Under the pieces are notes generated by a model. The model was not told the origin of the DNA. It was given only the letters and a program-made list of their open reading frames with translations, and did not search any database. From assembly GCF_004010195.1 (NCBI RefSeq), contig NC_057754.1:13522506-13586505 (forward strand): a stretch of 64,000 nucleotides of DNA, in the 5' to 3' direction. Positions 7,701 to 63,480 of the stretch are shown here, one piece after another. How positions within the stretch are numbered: position 1 is the stretch's first letter; each line of letters opens with the position of its first letter. Origin of the DNA: Chiloscyllium plagiosum (Eukaryota). The position numbers were made by a program, and so were the translations under genes.

Positions 7701-8519
7701 CTTCCTTCGTTCTTTCTGTTGATTAACAAAAAGCCTGCCAGTTGTTCGTATTTAAAATTGTTTTCTCCATGTGCGTTCGTTCTCAAACAATGAGTTTCGC
7801 ATTCAACCAATCGCGTGCACACACAAGCACTCTCTCTAAGTCTCTGATGAACACATACACACGCAGAGAGAGCACACCTTCCCATTGTAGGCAGTAATCT
7901 GATGCGAGTATAGTTAGCAGATGATAGTAAAGTTTGCAATACTCTCCAGATAGTGCAGTTTACTGAGCAACACACTAGCATGGTCTGCACAGCTCTCCAT
8001 GCTGGGTTGTCATCTTGTCTCACTTTATGTTGTTTGTGGTGTTCTGTGAAGCAGATTCAGAATTTGATGTAATAAACCATTTCAGCTAATCTGACAATGC
8101 CTTTATTCAATGTTCTCATTCTTGTAATTTAACTCACGAAGGTCTCACTTCTCCAGTTAGTCCCACTGCCCTGACTTTTTCCACATATTTCCACAGCATC
8201 TTTTCAGTTAATTAACTGTCTGTTTCTGTCTTTAATGTGAATCTCTCTGTCCCTTTGTATCTTTCCCTGGCCCTGGGTTTTGGCTCCCTCGTGTATCGAG
8301 TGCTGGCATTGCGTAGCTCATAAATAATGCAATGGCGTGTGCCAAGCTGTTGTTCATTTCCCGGTATGTCCCATGTGATAGTCCATGGACAGGTGTGTTT
8401 CAGAAGTTAAGAGAAACATCCTTGTAACTTGGTCTGTACCTGTGGCTGTCCCTGTCAGGTGACCTTGCGATCAGTAACATGAGGAAGCCCATTGAGTAAA
8501 CAACCAGGCATCTAAATTG

Positions 8520-11500: not shown

Positions 11501-11818
11501 TTCCTCCTGGATTGGAAAACTGCTATCAGGATCTGTATTCGAATATATCTTTGTGCAAAGTGGTGTAAACCAAGGAGGTACAGTATCTATTGTTTGTGTA
11601 AGTGTTCCAACATATAAGCTATACCAAAATGATCTTTTCTTTGATTGTATTTTAACTAAAGCATTTTAATAGATTATATTTTGCTTAATGTCGTGTTGTT
11701 TGACCAGTCACAACATGTCTGGAACGCACACTTCACATCTTTATTCTAAATAAGGAACGGTTTGGGTCCAAACGGCTTTCTTAAAATACTTTGTGGGGAT
11801 CTAGTCTGGCCCACAACA
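8520..11818 (+). mobile_element. Internally deleted Gypsy LTR retrotransposon, Gmr1-like
   Basis: Two related ~620-650 bp LTRs (about 8520-9174 and 11200-11818, ending CA); tRNA-Pro-like PBS tggggactcttgtccgg at about 9178; gag remnant LREILILEKFNNSLPAVVRTRVEEQRV...EMADDD; RNase H remnant KEALSLVLVLQHF...DPVKFL...LLLPFSL just before the 3' LTR. Confidence 0.85.
9225..9460 (-). mobile_element. HE1-like V-SINE (5'-truncated) inserted in the Gypsy leader
   Basis: Reverse complement has gggtgctttggtttcctctcacaatccaaagatgtgcatg and a 3' tail ggactgtttgggtcgaatggcctgttt. Confidence 0.8.
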
Positions 11819-11849
11819 CTTATAACGGAGGGGTTTCTGACTGACTCCT

Positions 11850-12850
11850 GTTTTTGAAAAGTTAGTGGAGGGGCTGGGGATGGTTTGCTGGAGGTTGTGC
11901 TGTGAGCTGCCTCAAACATTCAGGGAGACCTGAGGATTTGGTGACCCAACTCTCGATGGAGCCTGGGGACTGTAGTTACAGCATCTGGGTCTATAACATG
12001 AACAACAAATGGAGCAGAGGCTGCAGAGAGGGGAAGATCTGAAATCATGGAGTGAGTGTGTGTGAGGAATAGGATCTGTGGTACCCACCCCTGGTTTTCC
12101 AGGAACAGCTTCCCAAGCTACACTTAACCCAGGAGAAGAGTGTGAGGGGACACTGATTGAACAAGGCACTGGTCACATATCGGCGTCACCTCCTTTAACA
12201 CGTCCTGCAGCTTCACGCCAGGGGAAGGACGATGCTGCCAGTGACTGTTCGGGTCACAGTTTCATTCAGCTTCTATGTTCCGGAACTTTCCAAACAGGAC
12301 TGGGTGACATATCCATCATCTCCCAGTATGGTGCCATCAATGTAACCATTCAGTGACGGATGATATATTTGGTGGATGAGGTAAATACATTGTTTCTCCC
12401 TCAGCAGGGAGCTGCTGGGTGGATCCAGTATTGTGGGATTCCCGATGGTGTACATGGCATCTGCGGAGTTGCCGTGTCAATAGGGAGAGGTAGAGGAACT
12501 GAAGGAGCACTCTCTGTATTAATCTTGCAGCGTGCCCATCACAGTACACCATGTTGGTGAATACCCCTGTCCAGACAGCAGCCACAGTCTCGTCATTCAC
12601 AAGCAGGCAGCCAGTCCCATCGTCTTCGGGTCTCCATGAAGAAAGGAATGAATGTATCTTGGATAAAGGCTATCCTCTAGATACATGTTTGAAAACAGCA
12701 TCCCCATCACCAACCAAACATTTCAAAACATTCCATATGTAGGGAGAGAAATGGGGTCACTTGGAGCATCAACGAGCAAACGATCAGGGATGGCGCAAAA
12801 CCTCCCATGTCTGAATGGGTCTGAGTGAACCCCCCAGTACACAGTATCAT
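11850..12850 (+). mobile_element. PIF/Harbinger (HARBI1-like) transposase pseudogene
   Basis: Across frameshifts: GRTMLPVTVRVTVSFSFY, SGTFQTGLGDISIISQ, IVGFP, LDKGYPLDTCLKT, EQTI...LNGSExTPQY. These match Harbinger DDE transposase motifs (LxVxxKVxxALxF, SGSFQ...GISQ, GDxGYPL, RFRCLDxSGGxLQY). Confidence 0.85.
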
Positions 12851-12869
12851 TAATCCATGTAATCTCTCT

Positions 12870-14400
12870 CCATTTCAGTAACATACGGCCTTCCATTATT
12901 CCTGTAAATGAAATGACAGGTTATATTGTAGCTGCCAAATTATTATCCATTGCCTTTAACTCTCTGTATCTATCTGTAGACCCTCCACCCTCTCTTGATA
13001 ATTTAATCTCTTGCTTATCACAGCGACATCACCAAACTCAGTATCTGTATATCTGTTCCAACCTCCTGATCATTAATATAGATTGTAAATAGTTGAGGAC
13101 TCAGCACTGGTAACTGTGTGACTCCACTGGTGATATTTGTCAAACTGATTAAGATTGATTTATCCGGAGTGTCCGCTTCCTGTTTGATACACAGTCCTTC
13201 CCCATTACTGTGTAACACAGTCGAAACGTTGAATATGAACGAGAAGAATTAGTCAGGAATACAACCCCTCGAACCTGCTCCGCCATTGAATACAATCATG
13301 GCTGATGTCATCGTGGCCTCTGTTCCACATCCCTGCCATCTCTCCATTCTCAAACTCTAGTCTCTTGTTGTAGATTGTGGCTCATGAAAAAAGATCCACT
13401 CCACATCTACACTTTCGATTACGTTTAGCATTTTACAGACCTCAATGAGCGCTCCTATCGTTCTTATTAACTTGAGAGTATAGGTCTGAACTGCTCATTT
13501 CTCTTCATAAGACAAACACTTCAAATATGGAATCAATCTAATGAAGCTCTTCTGAATTGCCTCCAATGCAAATACCTCATTCTGCAGGACACCCAAACTG
13601 TACTCCAGTTGCAGCCTCACTAATGCCTTGCATAGCTACACCAACACTCCCTACCTTTCTACTCTATCCTTTTACAAATACACGCCGAAGTTATGCTTGC
13701 AGTTCTCATTACGAGCAGTACCCGCAGGCAGGTTTTCTATGATATGCAAACAGACACCCAGATCCTCTGCACGTAAGCACTTTGAACTTTCTCTCCATTT
13801 AGATAATAATTTGCCTTTCAATTACGCTGGCCAACTTGAATAACCCCATATTTATCCACTTTAATTTTCATTGCCAAATGTTGGCCCATTCACCCAATCT
13901 ATCCGTATAGTTTTTAAATCTCTTGTATCATCATTCCGAAGGAATTTCCCACCAATGTTAGTGTCATCTGAAAATGTAGCTATAGTATTATCTATCCCGT
14001 CAACCGAGTAATAATATCGACCACAAATGGTTGAGGCATGAGAGCTGAAATGTATGGCACCCCAAAATTGCATTTTCCAAACGAAAATGACAGGTTTATT
14101 CCATCTGACTGCATTTTTCTGGTTAACCAATCCTGCATCCAAGCTAATAAGTTATTCCTAAACCGATGCTGTTTGATCTTACCACTTACTCTTTGAAGAA
14201 GCGACATATCTGAATCCTTCACGAAGACCAGATATATTCCATCTACAGGATTCCCGCTATCCACCTTGTTTGTCACATCTTTAAATAACTCAAGAAAACA
14301 CTTCAAACTTCATTTATCTTTTGTAAAACTATGTTGACTCCGATGGATTGTGGTTTAAGTTTGCAAATGTCCTCAACAATGGATTCTAATAATTTGCCTT
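12870..14400 (-). mobile_element. Composite decayed CR1 fragments
   Basis: TSGVTQLPVLSPQLFTIYIND (13018-13218); CR1 3' end near 13250-13320; FSDDTNIGG (13861-14142); LELFKDVTNKVDSGNPVDGIYL (13992-14306). Confidence 0.85.
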
Positions 14401-15719: not shown

Positions 15720-18034
15720 GCTCAGATTCTACAGAATCTTGTAAGGTGGAGAATAAAAATAGCAAGGAGAAGGAAACATTGATGGGAGTTATATGTCAAA
15801 GTGAAAGCTGCAATACAAATGTTGGGCATTTTATGAAACAGGAAAATGAGATTACTGGCTACTGCAGTAATAATGTACTGTTCACATTATATCTAAACTG
15901 TGTTAACCCAATGCTAATGCTGGGAAAATGGATTTCATGAGCATGTGTTAGATGGCTTGCATTAACATTTTGTCGAGCACTTAGCTAGAGATCAGGTTAT
16001 TTGGGAATTGGTGTTGGATGGTCAGAAGAGCTAATTGAAAACGTTGCTGCAAAGGACCTTCTGGGAACAGTGACTACAATGCATTGGGTTTCTTTTATGC
16101 TGTTTGAGTGTACGATAATTTTTGTTTTACTTGAAATCACCATTATAAATCTGAATAATGCACGCCCTGAAGGTGTGAGGAGAAAGTGAGGACTACAGAT
16201 GCTGGAGATCAGAGTCAAAGAGTGTGGTGCACAGCATACTAGGACCAGTAGAATTGATGTTTCGGGCATTAGCCCTTCATCAGAAATGAGGCTTATGGGT
16301 CAAGGGAGCTGAGAGATAAATGAGAAGGAGGGGTGGCAGGAGGGAGGTAGCTAGGAATGTGATAGGTAGATGAAGGTGGGGTTGAAAGTGATAGGTGATA
16401 AAGGGAGACAAAACGCCTCATCTACTGCATCCATGAAACCCAGTGTGGTCTTCTCTACATTGGTGCGACAGGTGGATCAGAAAACATATCTGGGACAGCC
16501 ACATTGACCAAGTCCACCGCCTTGTGGCTGAACACTTCAACTCCCCTTTCTACTCTGCGAAGAACATGAGAGTACTGGGACTACTCCATCGCCAAACCCT
16601 AACCACCCGAAGGTTAGATGAAGAAAGGCTCCTCTTCTGCCTTGGGAACCTCCAACCACAGGGGATTAATGTAGATTTCACCAGTTTCCCCATTTCCCCC
16701 AACTCCACCTTATCACAGTCCAATCTTCCAACTAAGCACCTTCCCCACTTTTGAACGTTCCTATGTGTTCATCTTCCTCCCCATCAATCTGGTCCACCCT
16801 CCTCTCTGACCTAACCCTTTCAGCCTCACCTTCTACTACCTATTAGATCAAAGGAAGCAACTTAGAAAAATGCCAAGTGTTGTAGTAAGCCAATGGATTC
16901 AGAGAAATGTAGGACCCAGCAGCGAATGACCACGAAACTGAGAAGAAAATCGAAAAGAGAAAAAGCATGCAAACAAAAGAAAAACATGAAGACTGCTAAA
17001 AAAAAAAAACGTACATCACTGTATGAAACAAAAGTAAAAACAAGGTCAAATGTGGAACAGTAGGTGTGCGGACAGGATAATTTATTGCAGAGAACAGAGA
17101 AATCACAGGGGAAAGAAACAGTTTCTTTGTGTCTATCTTCAAGGCAGAATATCCAGAAATTCTCCCAGAAATACCATGGGACTTGTGTAAGTAAGGTCTA
17201 AGATCATTCATATCAGTGTTGAGGTCATCTTTGAAAAGAAAGCTGGATTGAGTATTTATAAATTTGACAGATCAGATGTACTTCATACAAGAATTTCAGA
17301 GGAAGCAGCAATAGACATATTGATTGTATCGCAGATTTTCACGTTATTTTCCATACATTCCGAAAGATATTTAGCCAATCTGGATAAGGCAAAGGTTATA
17401 AATATTATCCAACAGTTTAAGAAAAGATGAAGATGGAGAGTGGTGAACTGCAGACCAGTAACTTGTCATCCACGGTTGGGTATCTGTTGGGCTCGATTAC
17501 AAAGAACGTGTTACTGGATATATAGAAGGTAATGGGAAAACTGGGGAGGATGATAACGCATCGATGAAACAAAAAACATAAGTGGCACACATTTTCTGGA
17601 ATGGTTTGAAGATGATTCTTGTGGCCGTAGGCAACGAGGAGCTAATGGATAACGTATAGTTGGATATTCAGGAGGATCTTTTTTAAGAACTCTCACACTA
17701 ATATCATAAGAAAAGTTAAACTGAAAGGAATTGGGAAGAACACATGCAAATAGGAAACTAAAAATTCGGTTTACATTCATGTGAATGTAATTGCAATATA
17801 GAAAATATCGTGCGCCAGCTGCATAGAGTATTGCTGAGACTAAACTTAAAGAATCGTGTACCGTTTGGAGTCCCAATCTAAGATAGAATATACTGACTAC
17901 ATGGGAACTGCAAAAGGTATTCTCCAGATTAATCCATAAAATGGCAAGATTGCCTGATGGGGAAACTCAGCCTGTGATCTTGAGTTTCAAAAGATGAGAG
18001 GTGATTGTCGTGAAACTCAGGAACTTAGGAACAT
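15720..18034 (+). mobile_element. Old CR1 LINE ORF2 remnant, split by a Penelope fragment
   Basis: VENKNSKEKETLMGVI (endonuclease), then RT-linker and RT-like sequence such as aactgcagaccagtaacttgtcatc and gatattcaggaggatcttt; heavily decayed. Confidence 0.7.
16178..16845 (+). mobile_element. Penelope-like element fragment: inverted pseudo-LTR plus GIY-YIG C-terminus
   Basis: 16178-16400 is the reverse complement of the pLTR seen at about 60560-60835; ORF 16443-16754 VAEHFNSPFYSAKNMRVLGLL...RRLDEERLLFCLGNLQPQGINVDF matches 60124-60717. Confidence 0.9.
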
Positions 18035-18534
18035 NNNNNNNNNNNNNNNNNNNNNNNNNNNNNNNNNNNNNNNNNNNNNNNNNNNNNNNNNNNNNNNNNN
18101 NNNNNNNNNNNNNNNNNNNNNNNNNNNNNNNNNNNNNNNNNNNNNNNNNNNNNNNNNNNNNNNNNNNNNNNNNNNNNNNNNNNNNNNNNNNNNNNNNNNN
18201 NNNNNNNNNNNNNNNNNNNNNNNNNNNNNNNNNNNNNNNNNNNNNNNNNNNNNNNNNNNNNNNNNNNNNNNNNNNNNNNNNNNNNNNNNNNNNNNNNNNN
18301 NNNNNNNNNNNNNNNNNNNNNNNNNNNNNNNNNNNNNNNNNNNNNNNNNNNNNNNNNNNNNNNNNNNNNNNNNNNNNNNNNNNNNNNNNNNNNNNNNNNN
18401 NNNNNNNNNNNNNNNNNNNNNNNNNNNNNNNNNNNNNNNNNNNNNNNNNNNNNNNNNNNNNNNNNNNNNNNNNNNNNNNNNNNNNNNNNNNNNNNNNNNN
18501 NNNNNNNNNNNNNNNNNNNNNNNNNNNNNNNNNN
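18035..18534. other. Assembly gap (500 N)
   Basis: Run of N. Confidence 1.
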
Positions 18535-19398
18535 GCAAGAGATTTAAAAACTATATGGATGGGTCGGGTGAATGGGCAAACATTTGGAAATGAAAATTAA
18601 AGTGGATAAATATGGGGTTATTCAAGTTGGCCAGCCTAAGAAAAAGGGAAATTATTATCTAAATGGAGAGATACTTCAAAGTACTTAAGTGCAGAGGGAC
18701 CTGTGTGCCAGCTTGCATATCACAGAAAACCTGCATGCGGGTACTTCATTTAATGAGAAATGCAAGCATAACTTCAGCGTTTATTTGTAAAAGGATAGAG
18801 TAGAAAGGTAGGGAGTGTTGGTGTAGCTATGCAAGGCATTAGTGAGGCTGCAACTGGAGTACATTTTGGGTGTCCTGCGGAATGAGATATTTACATTGGA
18901 GGCAACTCAGAAGAGCTTCATTCGATTGATTCCATATTTGAAGTGTTTGCCTTATGAAAAGAAATTGAGCAGTTCAGGCCTATACTCTCGAGTTTATAAG
19001 AATGAAAGGAGAGCTCATTGAGTTCTATAAAATGCTAAACATAATTAAAAGTGTAGATGTGGAGGGCATATTTTTTTCATGAGCCGCAATCTACAACAAG
19101 AGACTAGAGTTTGAGGATGGAGAGATGGCAGGAAAGTGGAACAGAGGCCACGATGACATCAGCCATGATTGTATTCAAAGGTGGAGCAGGTTCGAGGGGT
19201 TGGATTCCTGACTGATTCTCCTCGTTCATATTCAGCTTTTCGACTGTATTACACAGTAACGGGGGAGGACTGTGTATCAAACCGGAAGCAGGCACTCCGG
19301 ATAAATCATTCTTTATCAGTTTGACAGAACGTCACCAGTGGAGTCACACAGTGACCAGTGTTGTGTCCTCAACTATTTACAATCTCTATCAATGATCA

Positions 19399-19686
19399 AG
19401 GAGAAAGTGAGGTCTGCAGATGCTGGAGATCAAAGTTGAAACTTTATTGCTGGAACAGCACAGCAGGTCAGGCAGCATCCAGGGAACAGGAGATTCGACG
19501 TTTCGGGCACAGGCCCTTCTTCAGGAATGACTCAGAAGGGCCTGTGCCAGAAACGTCATCGTGGCCTCTGTTCCACTTTCCTGCCATCGACTCATTCCTG
19601 AAGAAGGGCCTGTGCCCGAAACGTCGAATCTCCTGTTCCCTGGATGCTGCCTGACCTGCTGTGCTGTTCCAGCAATAAAGTTTCAA
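19399..19686. mobile_element. Palindromic Penelope pLTR-derived insertion with 13-bp TSD
   Basis: Absent at the paralogous left-arm site (about 13065-13080); TSD ctatcaatgatca at 19386-19398 and 19687-19699; perfect 97-bp inverted arms 19434-19530 and 19592-19688. Confidence 0.92.
19594..19629 (+). ncRNA. Minimal type I hammerhead ribozyme motif (PLE-associated); mirror copy on - at 19493-19528
   Basis: AUUC-CUGAAGA-A-GGGC cugu GCCC-GAAA-CGUC-GAAU: core CUGANGA/GAAA, 4-bp stem II, palindromic ACGU stem III, GUC site, AUUC/GAAU stem I. There is one extra A before stem II relative to the canonical core. Confidence 0.7.
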
Positions 19687-19929
19687 CTATCAATGATCAG
19701 GAAGATGGAACAGATATACAGATACTGTGTTTTGGTTATGTTGCTGTGATAAGCAAGAGATTAATTTATCAAGAGAGGGTGGAGAGTCGACAGATAGATA
19801 CAGAGAGGTAAAGGCAACGGATAATAATTTTGCAGTGCAATATAACATGATATAACCTGTCATTTCATTTACAGGAATAATGCAAGGCAGTATGTTCCTG
19901 AAACTGAGAGGGATTACAGGGCTTAATGA

Positions 19930-20900
19930 TACTGTGTACTGGAGGGTTCACTCAGACACAATAAGACATGGGAGGTTTTGATCCATCCCTGATCGTCTGC
20001 TCCCAGACAATCCAAGCAACCCCATTGCTCTCCGTAAACATGGAATGTTTTGAAGTGTTCGGTTGGTGATGGGGATGCTGTTTTCAAACATGTATCAAGG
20101 GGACGGCCTTTATCCAAGGTACATTCATCCCTTTCAACACGGAGACCCGAAGACGATGGGAATGGCTGCATGCTTCTGAATGAACAGGCTGTAGCTGCTG
20201 TCAGGACAGGGGTATTCACCAACATGATGTACTGTGCACCGGCACGCTGCAAGATTAATAGATAGAGAGCTCCTTCAGTTCCTCTACCTCTCCCCATTGG
20301 CATGGCTACTCCGCAGATGCCATGTACACCATCGGGAATCCCACTATCCTGGATACACCCATCAGCTCCGTGCTAAGGGAGAAACAATGTATTTACCTCA
20401 TCCGCCATGTATATCCTCCGTCACCGAATGGTTACATTGATGGCAACATACTGGGCGATTATGGATATGTCACCCAGTCCTGTTTGGAAAGTTCTGGAAC
20501 ATAGAAGCTGAATGAAACTGTAATCCGAACAGCCACTGGCAGAATCATCCTTCCCCCCGTGTGAAGCTGCAGGTGGTGACGCCACTCTGTGACCAGCTCC
20601 TTGTTCAATCAGTGTCCCCCCACACTCTGCTCCTGGGTTAAGTGTAGCTTGTGAGGCTGTTAATGGAAAACCCGGGTGGGGCCAGCAGATCCCTTTCCAC
20701 ACACGCACTCACTCCGTGGATTCAGAGCTTCCCCTCTGCAGCCTCTGCTCCATTTGTTGTTCATGTTCCCGGCCCAGATGTTGTAACTACAGTCCCGAGG
20801 CTCCATTCAAAGTTGGGTCAGCAAATCCTTAGGTCTCCCTGAATGTCTGAGGCAGCTCACAGCACAACCTCCAGAAAACCACCCCCAGCCCGTCCACTAA
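19930..20900 (-). mobile_element. PIF/Harbinger transposase pseudogene, duplicated copy
   Basis: ORFs 19923-20303 (LDKGRPLDTCLKT) and 20421-20708 (SRTFQTGLGDISIIAQ) mirror 11850-12850. Confidence 0.85.
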
Positions 20901-20943
20901 CTTTTCAATAACAGGGGTCAGTCAGAAACGACTCGTCAATAAG

Positions 20944-23319
20944 TGTTGTGGACCAGACCAGATCCCCAAAAATATTTTACGAATGTCGCTCAGTCCCAAA
21001 CATTTCCTTATATTAAAAATAATGGGAAGTGTATTTTCTAGATATGTTGTGACTGGTCCAACTACTCGACATTAAGGGAAATATAGTTATTCAAATGCTT
21101 TAGTGAAAATACAATCAAAGCAAAGAACATTTCGGGATGGCTTATATGTTGGAATACTTACACAAACAATAGATACCGTACCTTGTTGGTATATACTGCT
21201 TGGCACAAAGATAAATTCAAATACAGATTCTTACATGCAATTTTCTGATCCAGGAGAAATCAACATCATCAGAGATCTCAGAGAGAAAGGCAGCTAGGGA
21301 TCATGTATTGACACTTCCAACCATTCTGTTACCCCGAGCAGCTTCTGAATGCTGCAGCTAAAAAGAAAACGAGAAAACCTGGTCTGTGAGAGCTGACCAC
21401 TGCCCTTCCATTGTTATCACCGTTTTAATAAAACCTAAAGGCTTTCTCAATTATTTGCATAATTTTTTTCAGACAGCAGTTCTGCACCCCTGCCTTTAAA
21501 GCCTCTCTTAAAAAAAACCCAAGAGAAAATAACCTTTTTACAGTGATAGTATACTCACAACTCCATCTTTAATAAAATGATCCATCAATATACAAAGATG
21601 GATTCATTTTAGACCTCCTAATCTTCCTATATTATAAGCAATGCATATATATTACATTGACTCTGAGCATAGAAATATTCACAACGACAATCGATTTCAG
21701 TCATTTTACTCCTACTACAGAATGCCTTTGTCTTTCTTCATCCGAGACTCTACAACATGTCAAAAGTTAGTTTTGCTCGCCCTGTCAACTTTATAATTTC
21801 AAACTGAATGGCGGAAATAAGAAGCTCAATCGAAACAGACTGGTATTTTTCTCCCTAAACTTCTCCAAAAACGTTAAGGGGTCACGATCAGTGAAAAAGA
21901 TTTATCTCAGGTATGTTATTCGCAATTTAAATGCTGAAATGTTGTAACGGCAACACCAAGCTCAAGATATCCTTCCCCATTGTGGAATAAATCTGTTGAT
22001 GTTTCCATTGGACACTCCAACCACACGTTACATAATGGAGCACTTGTCACCTCTCCAATAGTCCTTCTGAATGACATAGCTCCTAATGTTTGAGCATAAA
22101 AGAATTACACGCTTCTGTACCTCTTAATGCTGTAACCTCTTTACATGCTACTCCTGACCTATGCCAGTAAACCTTACTCTCACAGGTATATGTTTTCAGA
22201 AGATCTCACACATTCTTCTCAATCCCTCACAGAAACGAAACTTTGATTTCTGAACCAAATCATCATCAGCCATTTCAGCTTCTAAGCTTGACATTGTAAC
22301 TCTTTGCTCTTCCACACGAATTCTCACGACTGCAGGAAATGAATTGTTGAACTTCTCCAAAATAAGAATTTCTCTCAGAGTTTCATAGGTTTGCTGTGTT
22401 TTTAATACCCTTCCCCACCTTTCAAAATTTCTTTGTTTGATTCTTTCAAACACAACGTGCGTTTAACCAGGGATGGTATTTTAAATTCCTAAAACTCTGT
22501 CTGCCGGCTTCTGGCATAATCTCATATGCACTTCTGATGGCTTTCTTCACCTCCTCATACTTCGCAGATACCTCCTCTGGTAGGGATACAAATACCTATC
22601 AGCTTTGTTTGGATCAACTAAATCCAGATGTTCTCTGGCAAGTGCACTTGTTTAGCCACTTTCTGAAATGAAATTAAAAGGCTCCCCCATCATTTTCATC
22701 AAATTTAGATAATGCCTGGATGTATTTAAACAGATCCCCACCAGGCCTTTGGCTACTATAGGGTTGCTCATCCTCACTATCCACCTTATCCAGCCTACTG
22801 TCTGCCTTCATCTCCGCCCTCTATGCCAACGTTCCTCTCTTATTGCTAACTGTTTAAGTTGAAACTCTCTGTTTTCTTCTCTCTTTTTCTCCCTTTCTTC
22901 TTCATTTCTTTTTCTTTTATTTCTACTTTTCATCATAATTCAAACTGTTTCAATTCCTTTTCATACTCAAGGTGTCTCATTTGAAGCCATTTCCAAACAT
23001 TGTGATGGCGTTTCCACCAAATTTAATTGCCGAGCTGCTCTCCCATTCCCACAGAGAATAGCAGCTAGGGATAATTTACTAAAACTTCCAACCCCTCTGG
23101 GACCCTAAGCCCCAGGTAGCTGTTACAGCTGCAAGGAAAAAAACTAGAAAGCTTGGTCTGTGCCAGCTGGCCATTATTACTATTATTTATTAAAAACCCT
23201 AAAAGCCTCGTAAGTTATTTACTTGAGCTGTTTTCAGTAGGCAGTTTGGCCTTTAAGACCTCTTACTAAATTAAAAGGAGAAAATAACCTCTTATTTAAA
23301 AAGTGACAGCATTGTCACA
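20944..23319 (-). mobile_element. Gmr1-like Gypsy element, duplicated copy with an extra deletion
   Basis: 3' LTR 20944-21559; gag ORF 22196-22453; 5' LTR partial at about 23050-23319; lacks the equivalent of left 8795-9715. Confidence 0.85.
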
Positions 23320-23934
23320 CAATTTATATGCCTGGTCCTTTACTCAGTGGGCGTCCTCGTGTTACTGATCGCAAGGTCACCTGAGAGGGACAACCACAGG
23401 TACAGACCAAGTTACAAGGATGTGTCTCATAACTTCTGAAACAGCCCTGTCCATGGACCATCACATGGGACATACCGGGAAGTGAACAATAACCTGACAC
23501 ACACCATTTCATTATTTCTGAGCTATACAATGGCAGCACTCAACAAACTAGGGAGCCAAAACCCAAGGCCAGGGAAAGATACAGAGGGACAGAGAGATTC
23601 ACATGAAAGACAGAAAGAGGCAGTTAATTAACTGAAAATATGTTGTGGAACTATGGGGAAAAAGACAGGGCAGTGGGACGAACTGGAGAAGTCAGATCTT
23701 CGAGAGTAAAATTACAAGAATGAGAACATTAAATAAAGGCATTGTCAGATCAGCTGAAATGGTTTGTTACATCAAATTCTGAATCTGCTTCACAGAACAC
23801 CACAAACAACATAGACTTGGACAAGATGACAGCCCAGCATGGAGAGCTGTGCAGACCATGCTAGTGTGTTGATCAATAAATTGCACTATCTGCCCGGCAT
23901 GGAGATTATTGCAAACGTTGCTATCACATGTGAG

Positions 23935-25880
23935 ACTGGAAGAGAAAACCCTGGATGTCAAGAGATATTGAGGCTCTGACCAGAAAAAGAGGAGGCCTCG
24001 CTCAGGTTCAGGCAGCTCGTACCAAGGGAATACCTGGAGGTATGCAGGGGATAGAGGAGTTTACTGAAGAAGGAAATCAGCAAGGCGAAAATGGGATATG
24101 AGATAGCCATGGCTGGGAAGATTAGGGTGAATCCAAATTCAGTATAGTAAAGAGAAAGAGCAACTAGAGAGAGAATAGGATGCCTTAAAATCCAAAATAG
24201 GCATACATGTGTAAAACCTGAAGAGATGGGTAAGGTCCTCAATTTCCCCTCTGTGTTTACCATGAAGAAAGACATGATGACCTGTAACCTTTTGGAGGTT
24301 AATTGTCATAACTTGGTACTGACCATATCACGGTAGAAGTGTTGTTGGACATATTAGAATGCACAAAGTCAGACAAATCATTTGGTCCTGATCAGATATA
24401 TCAAAGAGCACTTCAAGAGGCGAAAGAAAAAACTTTAGGCGCCAACGTCCTGGAAGTCTGGGCAGTCGCAAATGTGCCCTTATTCAAGAAGGGTTGCAAA
24501 GAAAAGCCTGGGAAATATAGACCGGTAAGCTTCACACCTGTTTTCGGTAAACCACTTGAGAAGGCTCTGAGAGATAAGATGTGTATGTATTTGGAAAGAC
24601 AGAGTTTGACTTGGAGCAGTCAGCATGGCTTTGCGCGTGGCGGATGATGTTTTACAAATTTTGTTACAGGTTTTTGATGAGGTGACCAGGAAGGTTGACG
24701 AGAGCAGGGTGGTGGACGTAGTTTATATGGATTTCAGTAAGGCCTTTAATAAGGTTCCACATAGTAGGCCGCTCCAGAAGTTGAGATTGCATTGAATCCA
24801 AGGTGAACTGTCAAATTGTCAACGCAATTGGCTTGACGTTAGGAAACATATGACTATGGTGGAGGTATGCTTGGCAGACTGGAAGCCTGTGACAATTGGA
24901 GTGCCTCACGGGTCGGTTCGGGGCCTATTGCTGTTTGTTATCTATATCAATGATTTGGATGAGAGTGCACAACGCAAGGTTAGTAAGTTTGCAGATGACA
25001 CAAAAATAGGAGGCATTGTTTACAGCGGGGAACGTTATCAGGAATTGCAGCAGTACATTGATCAGCTGGGGAAGTGGGCTGAGAATTAACAAATGGAGTT
25101 TAATACAGATAAGTATGACGTCTTTCATTTTGGAAAGTCAAATCCAGGTAGGATTTTAATGATGAATGAGAGGGTCTCAAGGAGTATAGTGGAAAAAATG
25201 GACGTTAGAGATCAGGTGCACGGTTGTCTGAAATTTGTATCACAGATACACAGGACAGCAAAGAAGGCTTTTGGTACACTGACCTTCATCTGGGCATTGA
25301 CTATAGACGTTGGGACTGTACAGGATGTTGCAACTGTACAGGATGTTGGTAAGGCTGCAGTTGGTGTATTGTGTTCAGTTTCATTCACCTTGCTCTGGAA
25401 AGGATATTATTGAACAAGAAAGAATGTAGAAGAAATATACAAACATGTTTCCTGGGCTAAAAGGTTGAGTTATAGGGAGAAGTTGGACTGGTTCGAACTT
25501 ATTTCTTTACAGAGTAGGAAACTGAAGGGGTTCTTACGGAAGTATAGATTTTATCAAATCATGAGAGGTGTGCATAGGGGTGAATACTTCAAATTTTTTT
25601 TTGCAACGTTGGGGAATCGAAGACTAGAGGACATCTGTTAATGTTTGGAGAGGAAAATAATAAAAAGGAATCTGAGGGTCAACTTCTTTACACAGAGTGT
25701 GATACGCATATGGACTGAGCTGCCAGTGGAAGTGGTCGAAGTGGGTAGAATAACAACATTGAAAAGGCATTTGGACAAAGACACAGATAGGAAAGGATTA
25801 GATGAATACAGAGCAAAGGCAGGGAAATGGCAGATTGGCAGATATGGCGCAACATGGTTGTTCACGGAGCACGCTGGGCG
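23935..25880 (+). mobile_element. Decayed CR1 LINE ORF2 RT region to 3' end
   Basis: PLFKKGCKEKPGKYRPVS, SQHGF, GVPHGSVRGLLLFVIYINDLDE...KFADDTKIGG, FFTQSVIRIWTELP. Confidence 0.92.
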
Positions 25881-25889
25881 TATTGGATG

Positions 25890-26050
25890 AGCTAGTACAG
25901 AGGGGGAGCATTCCCATCCCAGATGGAGCCACACCACCAGACACACCGAGCATTGTTCACCACCCAGCTCAGTCCAGTATTTGAGGTCTGAAGAAATGTC
26001 CAGCAATAGAGGACAAGCATCAATAACCTTCCACACTCTGTAAGGATAGT
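25890..26050 (+). mobile_element. Possible Harbinger Myb/SANT-like ORF remnant
   Basis: RNVQQ*RTSINNLPHSVR resembles the RxxxQCRKKxNDL end of Myb/SANT-like domains; followed by intron-like C/A-rich sequence as at 44135. Confidence 0.4.
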
Positions 26051-26154
26051 GTCACCGTATTGTCTCTACTCCCTCACACTCACTGTATATCTGTGATAGC
26101 ATTTATCCCGAACAAGCCTCATGGTCCCCAACTCTCACTGCTGCATGCAACACT

Positions 26155-26202
26155 TTCTCTTTCGCGCTCTATTTCTCTCCCCTCTCTCTCTCTCTCTCTC
26201 TC
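26155..26202. repeat. (CT)n microsatellite
   Basis: ctctctctctctctctctctc run within a pyrimidine tract. Confidence 0.9.
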
Positions 26203-26699
26203 GCCTTTGCAACACCTCCCACATAGTTATAGAGTATTCTGGAGCATGCCGATTATGGAATGTTGCAGATAATATTCCAAATAATTCCCAGTTTTCGGAA
26301 AATGGCAGTGTCCCAGTGTGTAACACATAAGAGGAAGGAGTAGAGAAGTACGTTTTTCAAATCACACACAATTCAAACCATGCTGAGGCCATTCAGCCTT
26401 TCAAACGTACTCTAGCATTTTTTAAGGTCCCCACTGACCTGATGGTTTTCTCAGCTCCATGTTAAAGGAACTTTGAGTCATTCAAACCCCTGGGTTCCTG
26501 TCACTGACCAGACAGCACTCAGGCATTTTTACCCCAGTTTTTTTTTCAAGCACTTGTTTGAGGGCATTTCTCATGGGGACGGACACGCCTAACAATATAC
26601 CATCATTTTTCATGTAATGGTCAGCATACTTTACACAGACCAAACAAAAAAATACACTTATTTTATGGTTATAGATATCCAATCACACTTAGTAATTCT

Positions 26700-29600
26700 G
26701 GTTATTTCACTTGACTCACCTTAATGATATTAAACCATAAACAACTTCTAAACACGTCTTGTTATAAAATACAATTTCGAGCAGAGAACGTTCTTACCCT
26801 CAGGCGTTATCTTGACCGTTATCTGACATCCAACACAACAGGATATCTTTCCTAGCATGAAAACTAAGTAAAGTTTTATTTCCCATCTGTGCATCTGTGT
26901 AAAATATCCTGGGCAGGCCCAGGAAAACAGAAATCAGGTCCATCTCCAATTCAGTCCCCAAGATCCACTCTATCACACCTAACACAGTGCTCCAATATAG
27001 ATGAAGCCTGCAGAAGGACCACAAGCAATGAGTAAGAGTGACTGTGGTCATTCTGCATTTAGGACATGCTGAAGAAAATCCCACTTTGCATTTTGAGAGA
27101 CAATCTGGAGTCAGATAGACCCTATGAAGAATTTTCAACTGTATGGAATGGGTCCTATTACAGATCAAAATCCTTCGAGCATTTACACAAATATCTTCCC
27201 ATGTCTCCGAAGTGGCCTGAACAAAGCTGCACTGTCTCCTCTGAGGGGACAATCTCCAACTAATGATAAAGGGTTCTGACAGAGAGTGTATTCGAAGCAA
27301 CAGGCACCCTCTTCTCTCGATCGGATCTGTAAGAGTATGTTAAAACTGTGTTTTTTTTAAAATCGAATTTCTGATCTGGAAAAAATCAGGAGAGGTCTGT
27401 AGAGGTTGTGTACATACGAGTTATTTGATCAAATGATATCATTGTGTCTCCATCAAAAAACACGTGGTGGCTCAGTGGTTAGCATTGCCGCCTCACAGCA
27501 CCAGGATCCCGGCTTTGGTTCCAGCCTTGGGTGACTGGCTGTGTGAATTTAACATATTCTCGCCGTGTCTGTGTGGGTTTCCTCCTCCAGTACAAAGACG
27601 TGCAGGTTAGATGAATCAGCCATTGATAAATCACCCATAGTGTTCAGGGATGTGTAGGTTTGGGCATTAGTCAGGGTAAATACAGAATGGTAGGGGAATG
27701 GGTCTCGGTGGGCTACACTTCAGAGGGTCGAAGTGGACTTGCTGGGCACAACGGCTTGTATCCACACTGTAGGGATTCTACTAATTCTAAATCACTTAAG
27801 CAAGGTACACCCCTGGCTGCCCACAGTTTAAACCTGGAATCCATTATCCCCGGTTGATTACCCAGTAGACCAATTATAGGGGTAAGAAACATAGTTTTGG
27901 CTGTATTGCCCTCTTTCTGACGCACTGTCATTCATGCTTTAACAGTATTGATAATTATTGGTTTTGTCAATACTCCATAAATGTTGTCATTTTGTCTAAG
28001 ACCAACAGACTAATATGGGTTCACTTTGTCTGATAGGGTTCAATATCTAACCCTATTGACGCCGAGTCCTCTGCGGCCCAGGCGCTAACATAGGATAAAA
28101 AGAGCTGAATTGATAGCTTTTAATCTGGGACATCTACTCCCCACAATCTGTGTGGTAGTTCAATTTGGTTAGCTTGATAAACAGTCGCTTATGGCGCCAA
28201 ATAAATGAGCTAAACCAGCCATATGGTCACCTAAATACCTGTCTGGGAAACATCAAAGGAAGCATTCACACGGGGTAGAGTAAATGAGGAAGGACATTCA
28301 TTTTAATAACAGCTATCAGACCTAGCCAGGATATTGGAAGTGCCTCCAATCTTTGAAGGTCTTGTTTAATTTTGTCAAACAAATGGACATAGTTCACATT
28401 AAATAAATGATCAAAGACCGTTTAATGAATATATTGAAATAGAGAACCCCCCCTCACCCATTTAAAAGGAAACCAGGATTTGCCCTCAACATTAAGTATT
28501 TCCCCAAGACCTCCCATAGGCATGGCCTCCAACTTTGTAAAATTAATTTTAAAGCCCAAAAAGGCGACAAACCAATTAATGCATTGCATCACGTGAGCTA
28601 CCGAAATTGCGAGATTTGACAAAAACATAAGACCCTCATCTGCATACAGCATAATCTTATGTGAATTCTATCCCACCTCTGGGGCAGGTATGTTGGGGTA
28701 ATATTCCCAATTGTACAGGATGCCACCGAATCTAAGATTGTTACAGGAATGAGGAAGAGATCAACCCTCGTGTGCCATTTCTGCAGGTTAAAGAAGAAAA
28801 TAAAATTACTACTTGGGAGGTAGATCTGCCTGCAGACACCCACTACCTCTAGTTCAGCACACAAATCTTCTAATTGCTTACATTATAACGAGGGTATTGG
28901 GGGACCTTTGGGCAATCTGCCCACAGTGGGGTCCATAAGACAGTTGAAACTCCTTTTACAATAATGTGTCACGATGCAAAATAACTTAATTTGGGAAATG
29001 CATCTAACAAGATTTTGAGCGGTTGCGCCGGGTGGCAATAAACATTCAAAATACTGTATTAATTCCCATAGTTCAAGGCTTTGAGGATTATGATCCTTCC
29101 GTGAGTGTTTAATACAATCTAGTAATTTATATGGAAGATTCTTCCTATCCAGCATGGCTTCTCCCCTACTCCTAGTATTAAAAGATGAGAAATAAACCGG
29201 ACCAAAGCCGCCCTGCTGTAACGTCAAAGGTTCCTTGTCATCAAGGTGCATCTCCTGCAATAGTGCAATATCCACCCTCTCTTTTTTAAGACGAGAATGT
29301 ACATTTTTCCTCTTGACTGGCAGGTGGCTCCCCTTAATTTTCCAGGTACACCATTTAAGCACATCATTTTCCATAGCACACTGAAGCAACATTTGAACTC
29401 TGGAGAGTTTCACATCGAATTACACATCGCTGAGCATTAATTACAAAAGAATCATCAAGCCTAAAAACTGTACAAACTAAAACTACTACAACTAACAAGC
29501 TCTCAAAATTTTCCAAAGATAAACACATAAAAAAACCAAGAATGAAACAAAATCAAAAGTGCCAATGACACTTGATGGGGGAATTTACCACCCACCCCCA

Positions 29601-45363: not shown

Positions 45364-45670
45364 TAGACAATAGACAATAGACAATAGGTGCAGGAGTAGG
45401 CCATTCATCCCTTCGAGCCTGCACCGCCATTCAATATAATCATGGCTGATCATTCCTAATCAGTATCCTGTTCCTGCCTTATCTCCATAACCCTCGATTC
45501 CACTATCTTTGAGAGCTCTATCCAACTCTTTCTTAAATGAATCCAGAGACTGGGCCTCCACTGCCCTCTGGGGCAGAGCATTCACACAGCCACCACTCTC
45601 TGGGTGAACAAGTTTCTCCTCATCTCTGTCCTAAATAGTCTACCCCGTATTTTTAAGCTGTGTCCTCTGG
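45364..45670 (-). mobile_element. Young-looking 5'-truncated CR1 3' end with (TTGTCTA)n tail
   Basis: tagacaatagacaatagacaatag followed by a clean 3' UTR gtgcaggagtaggccattc...cttcgagcctgcaccgccattc. Confidence 0.88.
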
Positions 45671-47539: not shown

Positions 47540-47753
47540 AGTTGAGAGTGTGGTGCTGGAAAAGCACAGCATCTGAGAAGCAGGAGAGTCGATGTTTCGG
47601 GGCAAAACCCTTCATCAAGAATGAGGCTGTGGAATCATGGGCATTTTCTCAGGACCAAGTTGACCCTTATCTGTTGGCTGCATTTTACATGGTTGTGGAT
47701 TAGCGGAAGGCGGAAAGGGGTGGGGAGGGAAATATATCCCTGGTGGTGGGGTC
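47540..47753 (-). mobile_element. Penelope-like fragment (pLTR and linker), cut by gap
   Basis: DPTTRDIFPSPPLSAFR matches 63345-63400; pLTR with decayed hammerhead (ttgatgaagggttttgccccgaaacatc). Confidence 0.85.
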
Positions 47754-51834: not shown

Positions 51835-52104
51835 ATGAAGTATTCAGTAAATTACACAGCACAGGAGGACGCCATACAACCATCCCAAGCTGTTATGCAG
51901 AAGCAGAGGCGCCCTGGGTAGCTGTCAGGAAATACAGAGTACAGATCATTACTCATTTTTATTTGGAAAGCTGTAACGAGTGGAATTCTTCAGGGATTTG
52001 TGTGAGCTCATCAACAAATTATAATCTATACTAATGAACCGGATGAAGGGGATGGAGCTCAGTTTGCTCATGCACCAGGATAATCATTCAATAAGATGCC
52101 AAAT

Positions 52105-58715: not shown

Positions 58716-60840
58716 ATAACCCTCACCATCAAACTGGCAGACAAGGGAGGTGCAGTGGGAGTTTGGCACACCCATCCTTACATCACTGAGGCTAGACGCC
58801 AACGCGTGGACACCTCCTCCCACTGCTCCGTTGACCATGACCCCACCTCCCACCACCAAACCATCATCTCGCAGACCATCCACAACCTCATCACCTTAGG
58901 GGATCTCCCATCCACTGCCTGCAACCTCATGGTCCCTTAACTCCGCATCGCCCGTTTCTACCTCCTGTCCAAAATCCACTAACCCAACTGCTCCGGCCGA
59001 CCATTGTCTCAGCCTGCTCCTGCTCCACCGAACTCATCTCTGCATACCTCGACACGGTCCTGTCCCCCTTAGTCCAAGAACTCCCCACCTACTTCGGGAC
59101 ACCACCCACACCCTCCAACTCCTCCATGATTTTTGCTTCCCCGGCCTGCAACGCCTTGGCTTCACGATGGACATCCAGTCCCTATACACTTCCATCTGCC
59201 ATCAGGAAGGCCTCCAAGCCCTCCGCTTCTTCCTCTCCCGCGGACCCAACCAGTAGCCTTCCACTGACACCCTCCTTCGACTGACTGAACTGGTCCTCAC
59301 TTCTCCTTCCAATCCTTCCACTTCCTCCAAACCAAAGGAATAGCCATGGGCACCCACATGGGCCCCAGCTATGTCTGCCAATTCGTTGGACATGGGGAGC
59401 AATCCATCTTCCGCAGCTACACTGGCACCACCCTCACCTTTTCCTCCGCTACATTGATAATTGTATTGGCGCTACCTCGTGCTCTCACGAGGACATTGAA
59501 CAGTTCATCCACTTAACAAACACTTTCCACCCGAACTCAAATTTATCTGGAACGTCTCAGACTCCTCCCTCCCCTTCCTCAATCTCTCCATTTCTACCTC
59601 GGGCAACCGCCTCAACACAGACATTTACTACAAACTGACCGACTCCCACAGCTACCGAGATAACACTTCCTCCCTCCCTGCCACTTGTAAAACTGCCATC
59701 CCATATTCTCAATTCCTTTGCATCCACCGCATCTGCTCCCAGGAGGACCAATTCCACTACCGAGTAGCCCAAATGGCCTCCTTCTTCAAAGACCACAATT
59801 TCCCCTCTGACGTGGTCGATGATGCTCTCCACTGCAACTCCTCCACTTCGCGCACCTCTGCACTTGAACCCCGCCCCTCCAATCGCCACCAGGACAGAGC
59901 CCCACTGGTGCTCACCTTCCACCCCACCAACCCCCGGATACATCGTATCATCTTCTGTCATTTCCGCCACCTCCAAACAGACCCCACCACCTGGGATATA
60001 TTGCCCTCCCCACTCCTATCAACGTTCCGAAGAGACCACTTCCTCCTGCGACTACCTCATAAAGGTCCACAGCCCCACTAACCCAACCTCCACTCCTGGC
60101 ATCTTCCCATCCAACCGCAAGAAGTGCAAAACTTGCACCATAACGTCCCCCTCACCTTCCTCCAAGGCCCCAGTGGATGCTTCCAAATCCATCGCAAATT
60201 CACTTGCACCTCCACACACATCATTTACTGTATCCGCTGCACCCGATATGGTCTCCTCTACATTGGGGAGACAGGCCGCCGACTTGCAGAACATTTCAGG
60301 GAACACCTCTGGGACACCCGGACCAACCAATCCAAATGCCCCGTGGCTGAACACTTTAACACCCCCTCCCACTCCATCAAGGACATGCAGGTCCTTGGCC
60401 TCCTCCATCACCAGAACCTGGCCACACGACGCCTGGAGGAAGAGCACCTCATCTTCCGCCTAGGATTCCTCCAACCACACGGGATAAATGTAGATTTCTC
60501 CAGCTTCCTCATTTCCCCTCCCCCCACCTTAACCCAGTCCCAAGCCCCGGATTCAGCACCGCCCTCTTTACCTGCAATCTTCTTCTCGACCTCTCCGCCC
60601 CCACCCCCTCTCCGGCCATTACCCCTCACCCTCGCGTCCTTGCACCTATCGCATTCCCAGCACCGCTCCCCCCTACTTTTTGTTTCAGCACCCTTGGCAC
60701 ACCAGCTAAATTCCTGAAGAAGGGCTTATGCCAGAAACATCGATTCTCCTGCTCCTCGGATGCTGCCTGGCTGCGCTTTTCCAGCACCACACTTTTCAAC
60801 TCTGGTCTCCAGCATCTGCAGTCCTCACTTTCTCCTAGTT
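58716..60840 (+). mobile_element. Penelope-like element copy A (5'-truncated): RT, GIY-YIG endonuclease, pLTR
   Basis: ADKGGAV, FTMDIQSLYT, AMGTHMGPSY, FLRYIDNCIG; GIY-YIG HIIYCIRCTRYGLLYIGETGRRLAEHFREH; pLTR with hammerhead-like ttcctgaagaagggcttatgccagaaacatc at about 60710-60745. Confidence 0.95.
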
Positions 60841-63480
60841 GATCTTAAACTACTGCGAATCCTCTTGCAAGGATGCCTAACTTGAAGAAGTTGTCCTCCT
60901 CCCTCTAAAAGGATCTCAGTGAGTCCCTCTCTCACTGCACCCCCCATGTCATCTCCTCTGCCCTGAAGCTCTTCAGCCACGTCCTCAAACAGACTCGCTA
61001 CCACAGTCACATCTCCTTCCTCAGCACCTGCCTACGGAACCGACTGACCCTGCATGGACTCCGGACTACATTCAGACCAACACAATTTAGACCCAACCAG
61101 GACAACCAGTACCTACAACAAATCCGAATCCTCCAGCAACAGACCTCTCTCCGGATCCTCCGCTCTACGCTCGCAGCCATGCGCCTACACTCCCTGCAGT
61201 CAGCCCTGCCCCAGCTCAGGACAACTCTCTCCCAGACCTGCAAAGGACCTTTGTTGTTCTTCCTCCTCAGAAGAATTCATACACTGAATAAACGGTTTTT
61301 CCTAGCCATATCGAACATCAAAGAAAGTAAGTACAAAAAAAATTCATGTACTCACCCGCACACTCCAGATTCCTCGACCGTTCCAAACCCTCTCGCGACC
61401 TCCGGAACCGCTCGGGCACAATTGCCCACGCGGCTGCTGCAGCCGCCACCACCGCGGTGAACAGTGACATCACTTCCGTCCCCACCGCCGCACAGACAAC
61501 AGCCACCACCGACCATGCAGCCGTCAGCGTAGCCACTTCCGCCCCGGGAGCTGCCGTCGCCGCAGCAACTTCTGCCCCCAGTGATGTCACTCACCTGCTC
61601 AAGCACCACACCGCAAGCTACGCCACTCCCACGTCAATCTCCGTCTCCACTCCCAGCTCCAGGCCCACACCAGGTCCCAGCAACAAACCCTGCCGTATTT
61701 TCACCATCCCTCCAGACGTCCCCCTCTCTGAGGATGAATGATCAATCCTCAGCAGAGGCCTCATCTTCATCCCCATACGCTCCAGGATCAATGAGTTCGA
61801 CACGCAGCTCGACATTGAGCATTTTTTCTGCCTCCTTCACCTCTGCACCTACTTCTTCCACCAGGACTCCCGCCCACCCTCTGACGACCCCTTCTCCCGC
61901 CTCCAACACACCCCATCCACCTGGACAACCCATGCTGGCCTCTTACCCGCCCTCGATCTTTTCATATCCAACTGCCGACGCGACATTAACCGCCTCAATC
62001 TGTCCACCCCTCTCACCCACTCCAACCTCTCAGCCTCGCAACGCGCAGCCTCCATTCCCTCCGCTCAACACCAACCTCACTACCAAACTGCAGACAAGGG
62101 AGGTGCAGTGGGAGTTTGGCACACCTATCTTTACACCACTGAGGCTAAACGTGAACTCACGGACACCTCCTCCTACTGCCCACTTGGCCATGACCCCACC
62201 TCCCACCACCAAACCATTACCTCCCAGACCATCCATAACCTCATCACCTCAGGAGATCTCCCATCCACCGCCTCCAATCTCATAGTCCCACAACCTCACA
62301 CCGCTCGTTTCTACCTCCTGCCCAAAATCCACAAACCCGACTGCCCCGGCCGACCCATTATCTCAGCCTACTCCAGCCCCACCAAACTCATCTCTGCATA
62401 CCTCTATATGGTCCGGTCCGCCTTAGTCCAAGAACTCCCCACCTACGTTTGGGACACCACCCACACGCTCCACCTCCTCCATGATCTTCGCTTCCACTGC
62501 CCCCAATGCCTTATCTTCACGATGGACATCCAGTCCCTACACACTTCCATCCGCCATCATGAAGGTCTCCAAGCCCTCCGCTTCTTCTTCTCCCACTGAT
62601 CCAACCAGTACCCTTCCACTGACACCCTCCTTCGACTGACTGAACTGGTCCTCACTCTTAACAACTTCTTCTTCCAATCCTCCCACTTTCTCCAAATCAA
62701 ATGAGTAGCCATGGGTACCCCATGGGCCCCAGCTATGCCTGCCTCTTCGTTGTATATGTAGAACAGTCCATCTTCCGCAGCTATACTGGCACCACCCCCC
62801 ACCTTTTCCTCCGCTACATTCTTGACTGTATCGCCACTACCTCGTGCTCCCACGAGGAGGCTGAACAGTTCATCCACTTTACTAACACCTTCCGCCCCGA
62901 CCTCAAATTTACCTGGACCGTCTCAGCCTACTCCCTCCACTTCCTCAACCTCTCCATTTCTATCTCGGGCGACCGACTCAACACAGACATTTACTACAAA
63001 TCAACCGACACCCACAGTTACCTAGATTACATCTTCTCCCACCCTGCCCCCTGTAAAAACGTCATCCCATATTCCCAATTCCTTCGCATCCGCCGCATCT
63101 GCTCCCAGGACGACCAATTCCAGTACCGATCAACCCAAATGGCCACCTTCTTCAAAGACCGCAATTTCCGCTCTGGTGTGATCGATGATGCTCTCCACTG
63201 CATCTCCTCCACGTCGCGCACCTCTGCACTTGAACTCGACCCTTCCAATCGCCACTAGGACAGAACCCCACTGGTCCTCACCTTCCACCCCACCAACCTT
63301 CGGATACATCGTATCATCTTCCGTCATTTCCGCCACCTCCAAACAGACCCCACCACCAGGGATATATTGCCCTCCCCACCCCTATCAGCGTTCCGGAGAG
63401 ACCACTTCCTCCACGAATCCCTCGTCAGGTCCACAACAGCCCCAACCCAACCTCCACTCCCGGTACCTTCCCATGCAACC
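60841..63480 (+). mobile_element. Penelope-like element copy B in tandem (N-terminus through RT), runs into gap
   Basis: N-terminal region, LSRGLIFIP, FYLLPKIHKPDCPGRPIIS, FTMDIQSL, MGPSYACLF, FLRYILDC, YYKSTD; stops and frameshifts present. Confidence 0.95.

Follow-up and report, generated by a model that had tools for sequence, protein, structure and literature searches.

A young palindromic Penelope-derived insertion in Chiloscyllium plagiosum with a centre apparently copied in several steps, in part from its own flank

Insertions of EN+ Penelope-like elements (PLEs) are described as carrying an inverted terminal repeat (pLTR), a tail of 30-40 bp on one side only, and a target-site duplication (TSD) (PMC3846280; PMC8557442). 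In PMC3846280, solo pLTRs with TSDs are mentioned that have trapped unrelated sequence between them; a single self-priming cDNA is also proposed there, and hammerhead motifs of PLEs that lack helix III are described in PMC6155905. The PLE protein of Anolis cuts and extends both strands in vitro, and it starts at two sites that are separated by the tail (PMC11167929). How PLE insertions are finished, why head-to-head ends are so frequent, and which role the hammerhead plays are treated as open questions (PMC11167929, PMC3846280).

Multi-round templated insertions are reported in alternative end joining (PMC9303309), and the templates used by Pol theta are given as lying within 30-50 bp (PMC9303309, PMC5728401). 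Short foldbacks of the flank are described at four L1 insertions (PMC10191854). Non-LTR retrozymes are defined as tandem head-to-tail monomers that bear hammerheads (10.64898/2026.07.22.740005).

The window analyzed here is a stretch of 64,000 nucleotides from Chiloscyllium plagiosum (contig NC_057754.1, positions 13,522,506 to 13,586,505 of the forward strand; assembly GCF_004010195.1), and all positions below are counted from its first letter. A preliminary description had reported an insert of 288 bp with a 13-bp TSD, and sequence comparison bears this out: the insert is enclosed by a pair of identical 13-mers (Table 1). The target is AT-rich and is present as a single copy in a paralogous segment in inverted orientation (7.9-13.9 kb versus 18.5-23.9 kb; 86-91% identical, and 91% near the site). 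The alignment of the paralogs runs straight through the site, with a gap of 301 nt opposite the insert and one TSD. The empty site that had been placed at about 13065-13080 does exist as a one-copy site; however, it belongs to a different copy of a multicopy segment and is not an allele. The inverted duplication as a whole pairs 7922-13925 with 18536-23926, and also 324-1317 with 23930-24925, at 85-91% identity, and a gap of 500 N lies between its arms. Within the duplicated segment, positions 22199-22462 of the minus strand hold a fragment of a SCAN domain (E 6.4e-5, below the cut-off), which was the one notable match in a Pfam scan of 40 frames; no match in these 40 frames identified the immediate flank. 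SCAN occurs in some fish LTR retrotransposons, and we assume from this fragment that the duplicated segment may be a decayed LTR element.

Table 1. Positions of the insert, its parts and related sequences in the window.
Feature	Position	Strand	Basis
Left TSD, 13 bp (9/13 A/T)	19386..19398	+	identical 13-mer pair
Right TSD	19687..19699	+	identical 13-mer pair
Homologous site without insert, in the paralogous inverted segment (11/13 to TSD)	13067..13079	-	alignment
PLE "tail" of 35 nt, left arm only; 19399 is the family 3' terminus	19399..19433	-	read ends; window copies
Left arm: 5'-truncated pLTR, antisense on the plus strand, with a minimal hammerhead motif on the minus strand	19434..19530	-	83% to 60710-60836
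Right arm: sense pLTR without tail; final 2 nt common to TSD	19591..19686	+	inverted repeat; family reads
Minimal type I hammerhead motif	19594..19629	+	motif search and fold
Junction hexamer GACTCA, first copy (left arm, 2 nt; right-arm start, 4 nt)	19529..19534	+	sequence comparison
Piece C: 24-nt snap-back copy of 19497-19520 (23/24), ending at the predicted hammerhead cut triplet GTC	19534..19557	+	comparison; DNA fold
Piece D: filler of 34 nt copied inverted from the upstream flank; overlaps piece C by its first 3 nt (GTC)	19555..19588	-	exact reverse complement
Junction hexamer, second copy	19589..19594	+	sequence comparison
Template of the filler, in multicopy flank; immediately preceded by 12 nt similar to the right-arm start (9/12)	19124..19157	+	exact match
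Partial-tandem, degenerate PLE from a related subfamily (pLTR: 60710-60836), by which the arm is recognised as PLE-derived	58721..63480	+	alignment; weak Pfam match

The arms are exact reverse complements of one another over 97/97 nt (19434-19530 and 19592-19688), as previously described, and the last 2 nt of the right repeat fall inside the right TSD. The insert is asymmetric; the left arm has an extra 35 nt, and the right arm has none. At 19399, 17,799 reads of run X19 leave the reference and diverge into unrelated AT-rich sequence (agreement 0.34), and therefore this position is the terminus of the family. Two older copies in the window also terminate at the equivalent position. Upstream of 19591, 11,409 reads run on into one common sequence (agreement 0.82), which marks the arms as 5'-truncated. 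A tail is likewise missing from an older copy at 47540, which ends within 1-3 nt of the end point of the right arm.

Together with the 35 nt, the left arm is 83% identical to 60710-60836 (131 columns). This pLTR directly follows a frame (60082-60714) with a weak match to Pfam GIY-YIG (E 0.0026; 18.5 bits, below the cut-off of 22.6; one of the four frames scanned), and Atlas look-alikes of two frames in the same PLE carry GIY-YIG, HTH_animal or RVT_1 families, which we take as leads only. Neither a reverse transcriptase (RT) of the telomerase-like type nor a GIY-YIG domain is encoded in the 288-bp insert (Pfam scan, frame 19355-19651), and we therefore class it as a non-coding PLE-derived stub and not as an element. 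The Penelope origin proposed earlier is upheld by the agreement of arm-pLTR similarity, tail, termini and TSD. Judged from its sequence, the insert is two head-to-head PLE ends in the published inverted-pLTR layout. Two older antisense pLTR copies in the window (16178-16290 and 47540-47625), one with a tail and one without, both extend upstream of the hammerhead. The PLE at 58721-63480 comprises two copies that are 87% identical, and the end of the tail is followed there by AG, which resembles a splice acceptor.

Motif search and folding reveal a minimal hammerhead motif in both arms; stems I and II are present, and a proper stem III is missing. In the right arm, stem I pairs 19594-97 with 19626-29, CUGANGA occupies 19598-19604, stem II pairs 19606-09 with 19614-17, and GAAA occupies 19618-21; the core numbering is the one that we take to apply. 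Cleavage is predicted after 19625, at the triplet GTC. The 5' ends of the arms fall 6-7 nt upstream of the hammerhead core. No Rfam model matched the window at its gathering score, and no hammerhead was among the matches to the insert. The 14 E-value matches on the insert, all below the gathering score, were mostly to miRNA hairpin models, and a reading of the insert as a miRNA was rejected. The fold of the insert has a z-score of -23, which merely restates the inverted repeat. The two hammerhead copies are head to head and are the only ones in the insert, in contrast to the tandem head-to-tail monomers of non-LTR retrozymes.

The spacer between the arms is 61 nt long (19531-19591). It had been described as a 34-nt spacer; that piece is indeed an exact inverted copy of the flank, but it forms only part of the true spacer, and a 24-nt snap-back copy had been overlooked. 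From left to right, the centre consists of the end of the left arm, three bases equal to the start of the right arm, piece C, piece D, two bases equal to the end of the left arm, and the right arm. When the 60 nt between equivalent positions of the two junction hexamers are dropped, a perfect 97+1+97 palindrome results. Because the duplicated hexamer spans the fusion of the two arms, the arms had probably met before pieces C and D were made, although this pattern was noticed post hoc and has no formal null.

When folded as DNA, 19495-19557 forms a hairpin with a 4-nt loop at the end of the left arm, and the three extra bases are bulged. Piece C starts at the exact point where extension of the TCA/TGA hairpin at the left-arm end would begin. 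The same junction without the three extra bases was found in 14 reads (8 starts) of run X19, in 8 contigs of X1, in 2 of X15, and in 0 of X5; library fold-backs could contribute to these reads. The entry from piece C into piece D has an exact match of 3 nt and a match of 4/5, at one flank site among nine GAC triplets in 450 nt, and the sole other occurrence of the entry pattern is the template of piece C itself. The exit lies near a flank stretch that resembles the right-arm start at 9 of 12 positions; this level is reached by 16 of 830 upstream positions, and the match leaves two terminal bases unexplained. The templates of pieces C and D both sit inverted on one strand. Template switching onto nearby DNA, as put forward in the preliminary description, agrees with these junction homologies (3-nt entry, 9/12 exit) but is incomplete: the arrangement of the pieces indicates at least three switches, not one. 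The lone substitution in piece C, at 19549, is the base that the older pLTR copy at 60710-60836 carries there, either as a recurrent error or by coincidence.

Piece D has a single exact match in the window, to the template listed in Table 1. The longest match in 1000 Markov-resampled local flanks was 13 nt, compared to the 34 nt observed. Between the end of the template and the TSD lie 228 nt, and the distance to the centre is 374 nt; the local source previously placed about 250 bp upstream is thus retained with corrected distances. The paralogous sequence at 13307-13340 matches the filler at 32/34 positions. It had been argued from this difference that the filler follows the right-arm variant of the large duplication; the match of 34/34 is correct, but it excludes only that one paralog, and the argument is weak because the flank itself is multicopy. 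The part 18700-20500 of the duplicated segment is multicopy in the reads of organisms A and B. The two diagnostic positions that separate the right and left variants are absent among the 40 near-fixed differences listed (beside 977 further rows), and they may represent the majority state of the flank family.

In X19 (1,934 million letters), the flank bins had a read depth of 61-416, and the arms reached 25,000-29,000. If the genome measures a few gigabases, as contig totals suggest, coverage would be about 0.5x, and these depths would probably mean that the flank exists in hundreds of copies and the arm in tens of thousands. We estimate the odds that a distant template hit the homologous kilobase of the flank family at about 1 in several thousand. 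Since a distant match is this improbable and both junctions fit the local sequence, a local template is far more likely than a distant one. A 38-nt tandem duplication is present at 19152-19189 in other members of the flank family (107 reads in X19, and contigs in X1, X15 and X5); it overlaps the edge of the filler template and is probably unrelated. Distant relatives of the filler source region (64-72%) are found at 45403-45488, 32501-32586 and 2480-2584. The source region presumably resembles the 3' tail of shark CR1/HE1-type repeats.

The palindrome might have moved as a ready-made, MITE-like unit whose spacer stems from a previous insertion into a different copy of the flank family. The flank family is multicopy, and the 34-mer probably exists elsewhere for that reason; however, such a unit would need a second landing less than 400 nt from homologous sequence, and its ends are the asymmetric ends of a PLE. 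The insert does not have inverted repeats at both termini, as the left arm begins 35 nt inside it. Reads that cross the centre mostly stop at 19548 (15/21 and 13/25), where the allele departs from the ordinary arm, so few reads pass this point, and among the best 15 of 713 joints, the joints differ between copies. We consider a ready-made unit extremely improbable.

The event was proposed to be recent, and the divergence agrees: none of the 144 compared positions is mismatched (95% bound 2.1%), versus 8.6% between the flank paralogs, with the TSD and the filler alone contributing 47 of the compared positions and the arm pairs being subject to possible homogenisation. We also checked reads from four runs (X19, X1, X15 and X5, out of 24 candidates) at likeness 88, with a best share of words of 0.30; the output at this likeness was swamped by other repeat copies. 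No read or contig spanning the filler was among the matches listed for the four runs (30% of words in the best run), and the joint of the empty site was not among the best 15 of 713 joints. The absence of the allele from the listed read records, the repeat-within-repeat setting, and the N gaps (three in the window, one of which, 18035-18534, lies 850 nt upstream of the insert) would be compatible with an assembly or library artefact, that is, a fold-back chimera or a misassembled palindrome. For this, an artefact would have to account for the exact TSD, the genuine termini of the family at both ends, a private substitution, and three junctions that overlap by 0-3 nt, whereas graph assemblers join only on long overlaps. 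This explanation is very unlikely, and as far as the letters can tell, the structure is real, PLE-derived and young.

The copies in other genomes include 12 fusions of left arm to right arm with differing breakpoints among the best 15 of 713 joints. The sides of these joints are short (20-51 nt) and error-prone at likeness 88, and raw reads support 6 of the 12, with 1-4 reads each. The arm-arm fusions look recurrent, each made individually. Seven metagenome loci and three loci from prokaryote genomes were rejected as further candidates; the arm match was only 22-27 nt, and these are not PLE copies. No loci in viral contigs matched the arm.

Our preferred reading, to which we give a probability of roughly 0.55, is that both target ends primed synthesis and that the centre was then sealed through iterative microhomology-primed synthesis. 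The PLE endonuclease would have nicked both strands 13 nt apart, and both 3' ends of the target would have primed reverse transcription, the left end from the full (tail) start and the right end from the tail-less start. Two antisense cDNAs would result, one of about 132 nt and one of about 96 nt, both stopping 6-7 nt upstream of the hammerhead core. These cDNA ends would have met end to end, each lengthened by a few bases taken from its partner (top +4, bottom +2); the pattern is visible in the sequence, and the event is our interpretation of it. We propose that the junction hexamer is present twice because each cDNA end copied bases of the other. The top end may then have snapped back at its own terminal hairpin (TCA-GGAA-TGA), where extension added about 24 nt with one error. 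Through the GTC microhomology it would have moved to a template 374 nt away, in the upstream flank of the same strand, copied 31 more nt, and rejoined the right end near the imperfect 9/12 match. The polymerase could be of the host end-joining type (Pol theta-like) or the PLE RT acting on DNA.

The TSD, the tail, and the identity of both termini with the family ends speak for this sequence of events, as do the 97+1+97 palindrome left by removal of 60 nt and the fold that puts piece C exactly at the snap-back position. The published layout, the action of the Anolis protein on both strands, the entry and exit patterns, the shared strand and orientation of the two templates, the varied arm-to-arm fusions in other genomes, and the multi-round insertions and L1 foldbacks described elsewhere point in the same direction; the two unexplained bases at the exit weigh against it. 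A single self-priming cDNA could, in our analysis, also yield two arms that end together; the symmetry of the breakpoints (offsets -30 to +50 in the 12 listed head-to-head joints; no formal null) does not separate models with one cDNA from those with two. The distance of 374 nt to the second template exceeds the 50 bp given for Pol theta and counts against the preferred reading. The stub has no function of its own and, as a single event, no evident effect on the host. Thanks to its 61-nt spacer, it is probably more stable than a perfect palindrome would be.

The same collapsed form, a perfect palindrome, is also the expected starting point of a later repair. In this scenario, a finished 97+1+97 palindrome would have extruded as a hairpin or cruciform. 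Opening 2-3 nt beyond the tip on each strand would have been followed by resection, and snap-back and flank copying would then have filled the break. Both ends overrun the centre by a few bases, as the opening of a hairpin would leave them, and in mouse, central revision of perfect palindromes is described, with spacers of 35-52 bp conferring stability (review PMC8701086). The likeness extends to the breaking of central symmetry while the arms are kept. In the accessible part of the same review, however, 93% of such revisions are deletions and inclusion of a spacer is uncommon, whereas a templated insertion was gained here and no arm sequence was lost; the mouse palindromes are also far longer (15 kb). 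We regard repair of a later break as possible but rather unlikely. Judging by sequence, such a break would give an identical pattern, and for this reason an origin at integration and an origin in repair are inseparable here; of the earlier proposal of switching during "integration or repair", the switching is retained and the two timings cannot be told apart.

The predicted cut triplet coincides exactly with the end of piece C, and the chance of this is 3-10% by a rough estimate from the possible end points. The switch could therefore be linked to the hammerhead: RNA cut at GUC would bound piece C, either through a jump of the RT to the 3' end of the 5' product or through stalling of the snap-back at the hybridised 3' product. 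However, the triplet is at the same time the microhomology to the flank, and this accounts for the stop with no ribozyme involved. No excess of breakpoints was found at the cut (2/24 within 2 nt, about chance, in the 12 listed head-to-head joints), and in the in vitro study, cleavage is dispensable and no reads end at the site (PMC11167929). A link between switching and cleavage is doubtful at this locus.

The preferred reading, priming at both ends followed by iterative sealing, can be set against the described systems. The insert resembles EN+ PLE insertions in its head-to-head pLTRs, the 35-nt tail on one arm, the TSD, and the AT-rich target (PMC3846280; PMC8557442); in contrast to the insertions in the accessible portions of these papers, it is a stub without an ORF, its captured piece is traceable to its own flank, and several ordered switches are apparent. 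As with Anolis Poseidon (PAc) in vitro, there are two starts separated by the tail, both strands are extended, and the arms are copied through an uncut hammerhead (PMC11167929). That study leaves second-strand synthesis and joining open, and the stub would be a fossil of this step in another family. With SD-MMEJ and Pol theta repair, the centre shares snap-back inverted copies, primers of 1-3 nt, abortive synthesis across the break, and several rounds (PMC5728401; PMC9303309). Pieces C and D are inverted copies with short primer homology, as in SD-MMEJ, and the template of piece C lies within about 50 bp; however, we liken the centre to a Pol theta/SD-MMEJ insertion without classing it as one because the template of piece D is 374 nt away, compared to the 30-50 bp described. 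L1 insertions also have both target ends primed, end-joined inversion junctions, and occasional copies of the upstream flank (four cases, 52-220 bp) (PMC10191854; PMC11702581). L1 twin priming, as given there, produces inverted parts that do not overlap, whereas here both arms copy one segment and the flank copy is central.

The layout is already known; in the literature searched (mostly non-subscription papers, supplements excluded), we found no description of fillers from the own flank between inverted PLE arms, nor of a centre that appears to be templated by the own flank in an ordered way. The locus gives the order of steps unusually clearly: the arms meet, the end snaps back, the flank is copied, and the ends rejoin. 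Three signatures can be counted over the tens of thousands of arm copies suggested by read depth, namely duplicated junction bases, fillers from the own flank, and the position of switch points relative to the cut site. A single locus cannot settle how PLE insertions are completed. That they are routinely finished by central joining of two cDNA 3' ends, with switch points set by hammerhead cleavage in vivo, seems to us a long shot; if true, many young palindromic stubs of the shark type would be a natural library of the second half of PLE integration and of the role of the ribozyme.

The window also contains repeats away from the insert, and its repeat content looks shark-like. At 50925-51830, inverted termini of 125 nt (86%) surround 656 nt, which resembles a non-autonomous DNA transposon. 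A minisatellite with a unit of about 35 nt occupies 52087-54110, and a 42-nt tandem array is located at 2674-2984.
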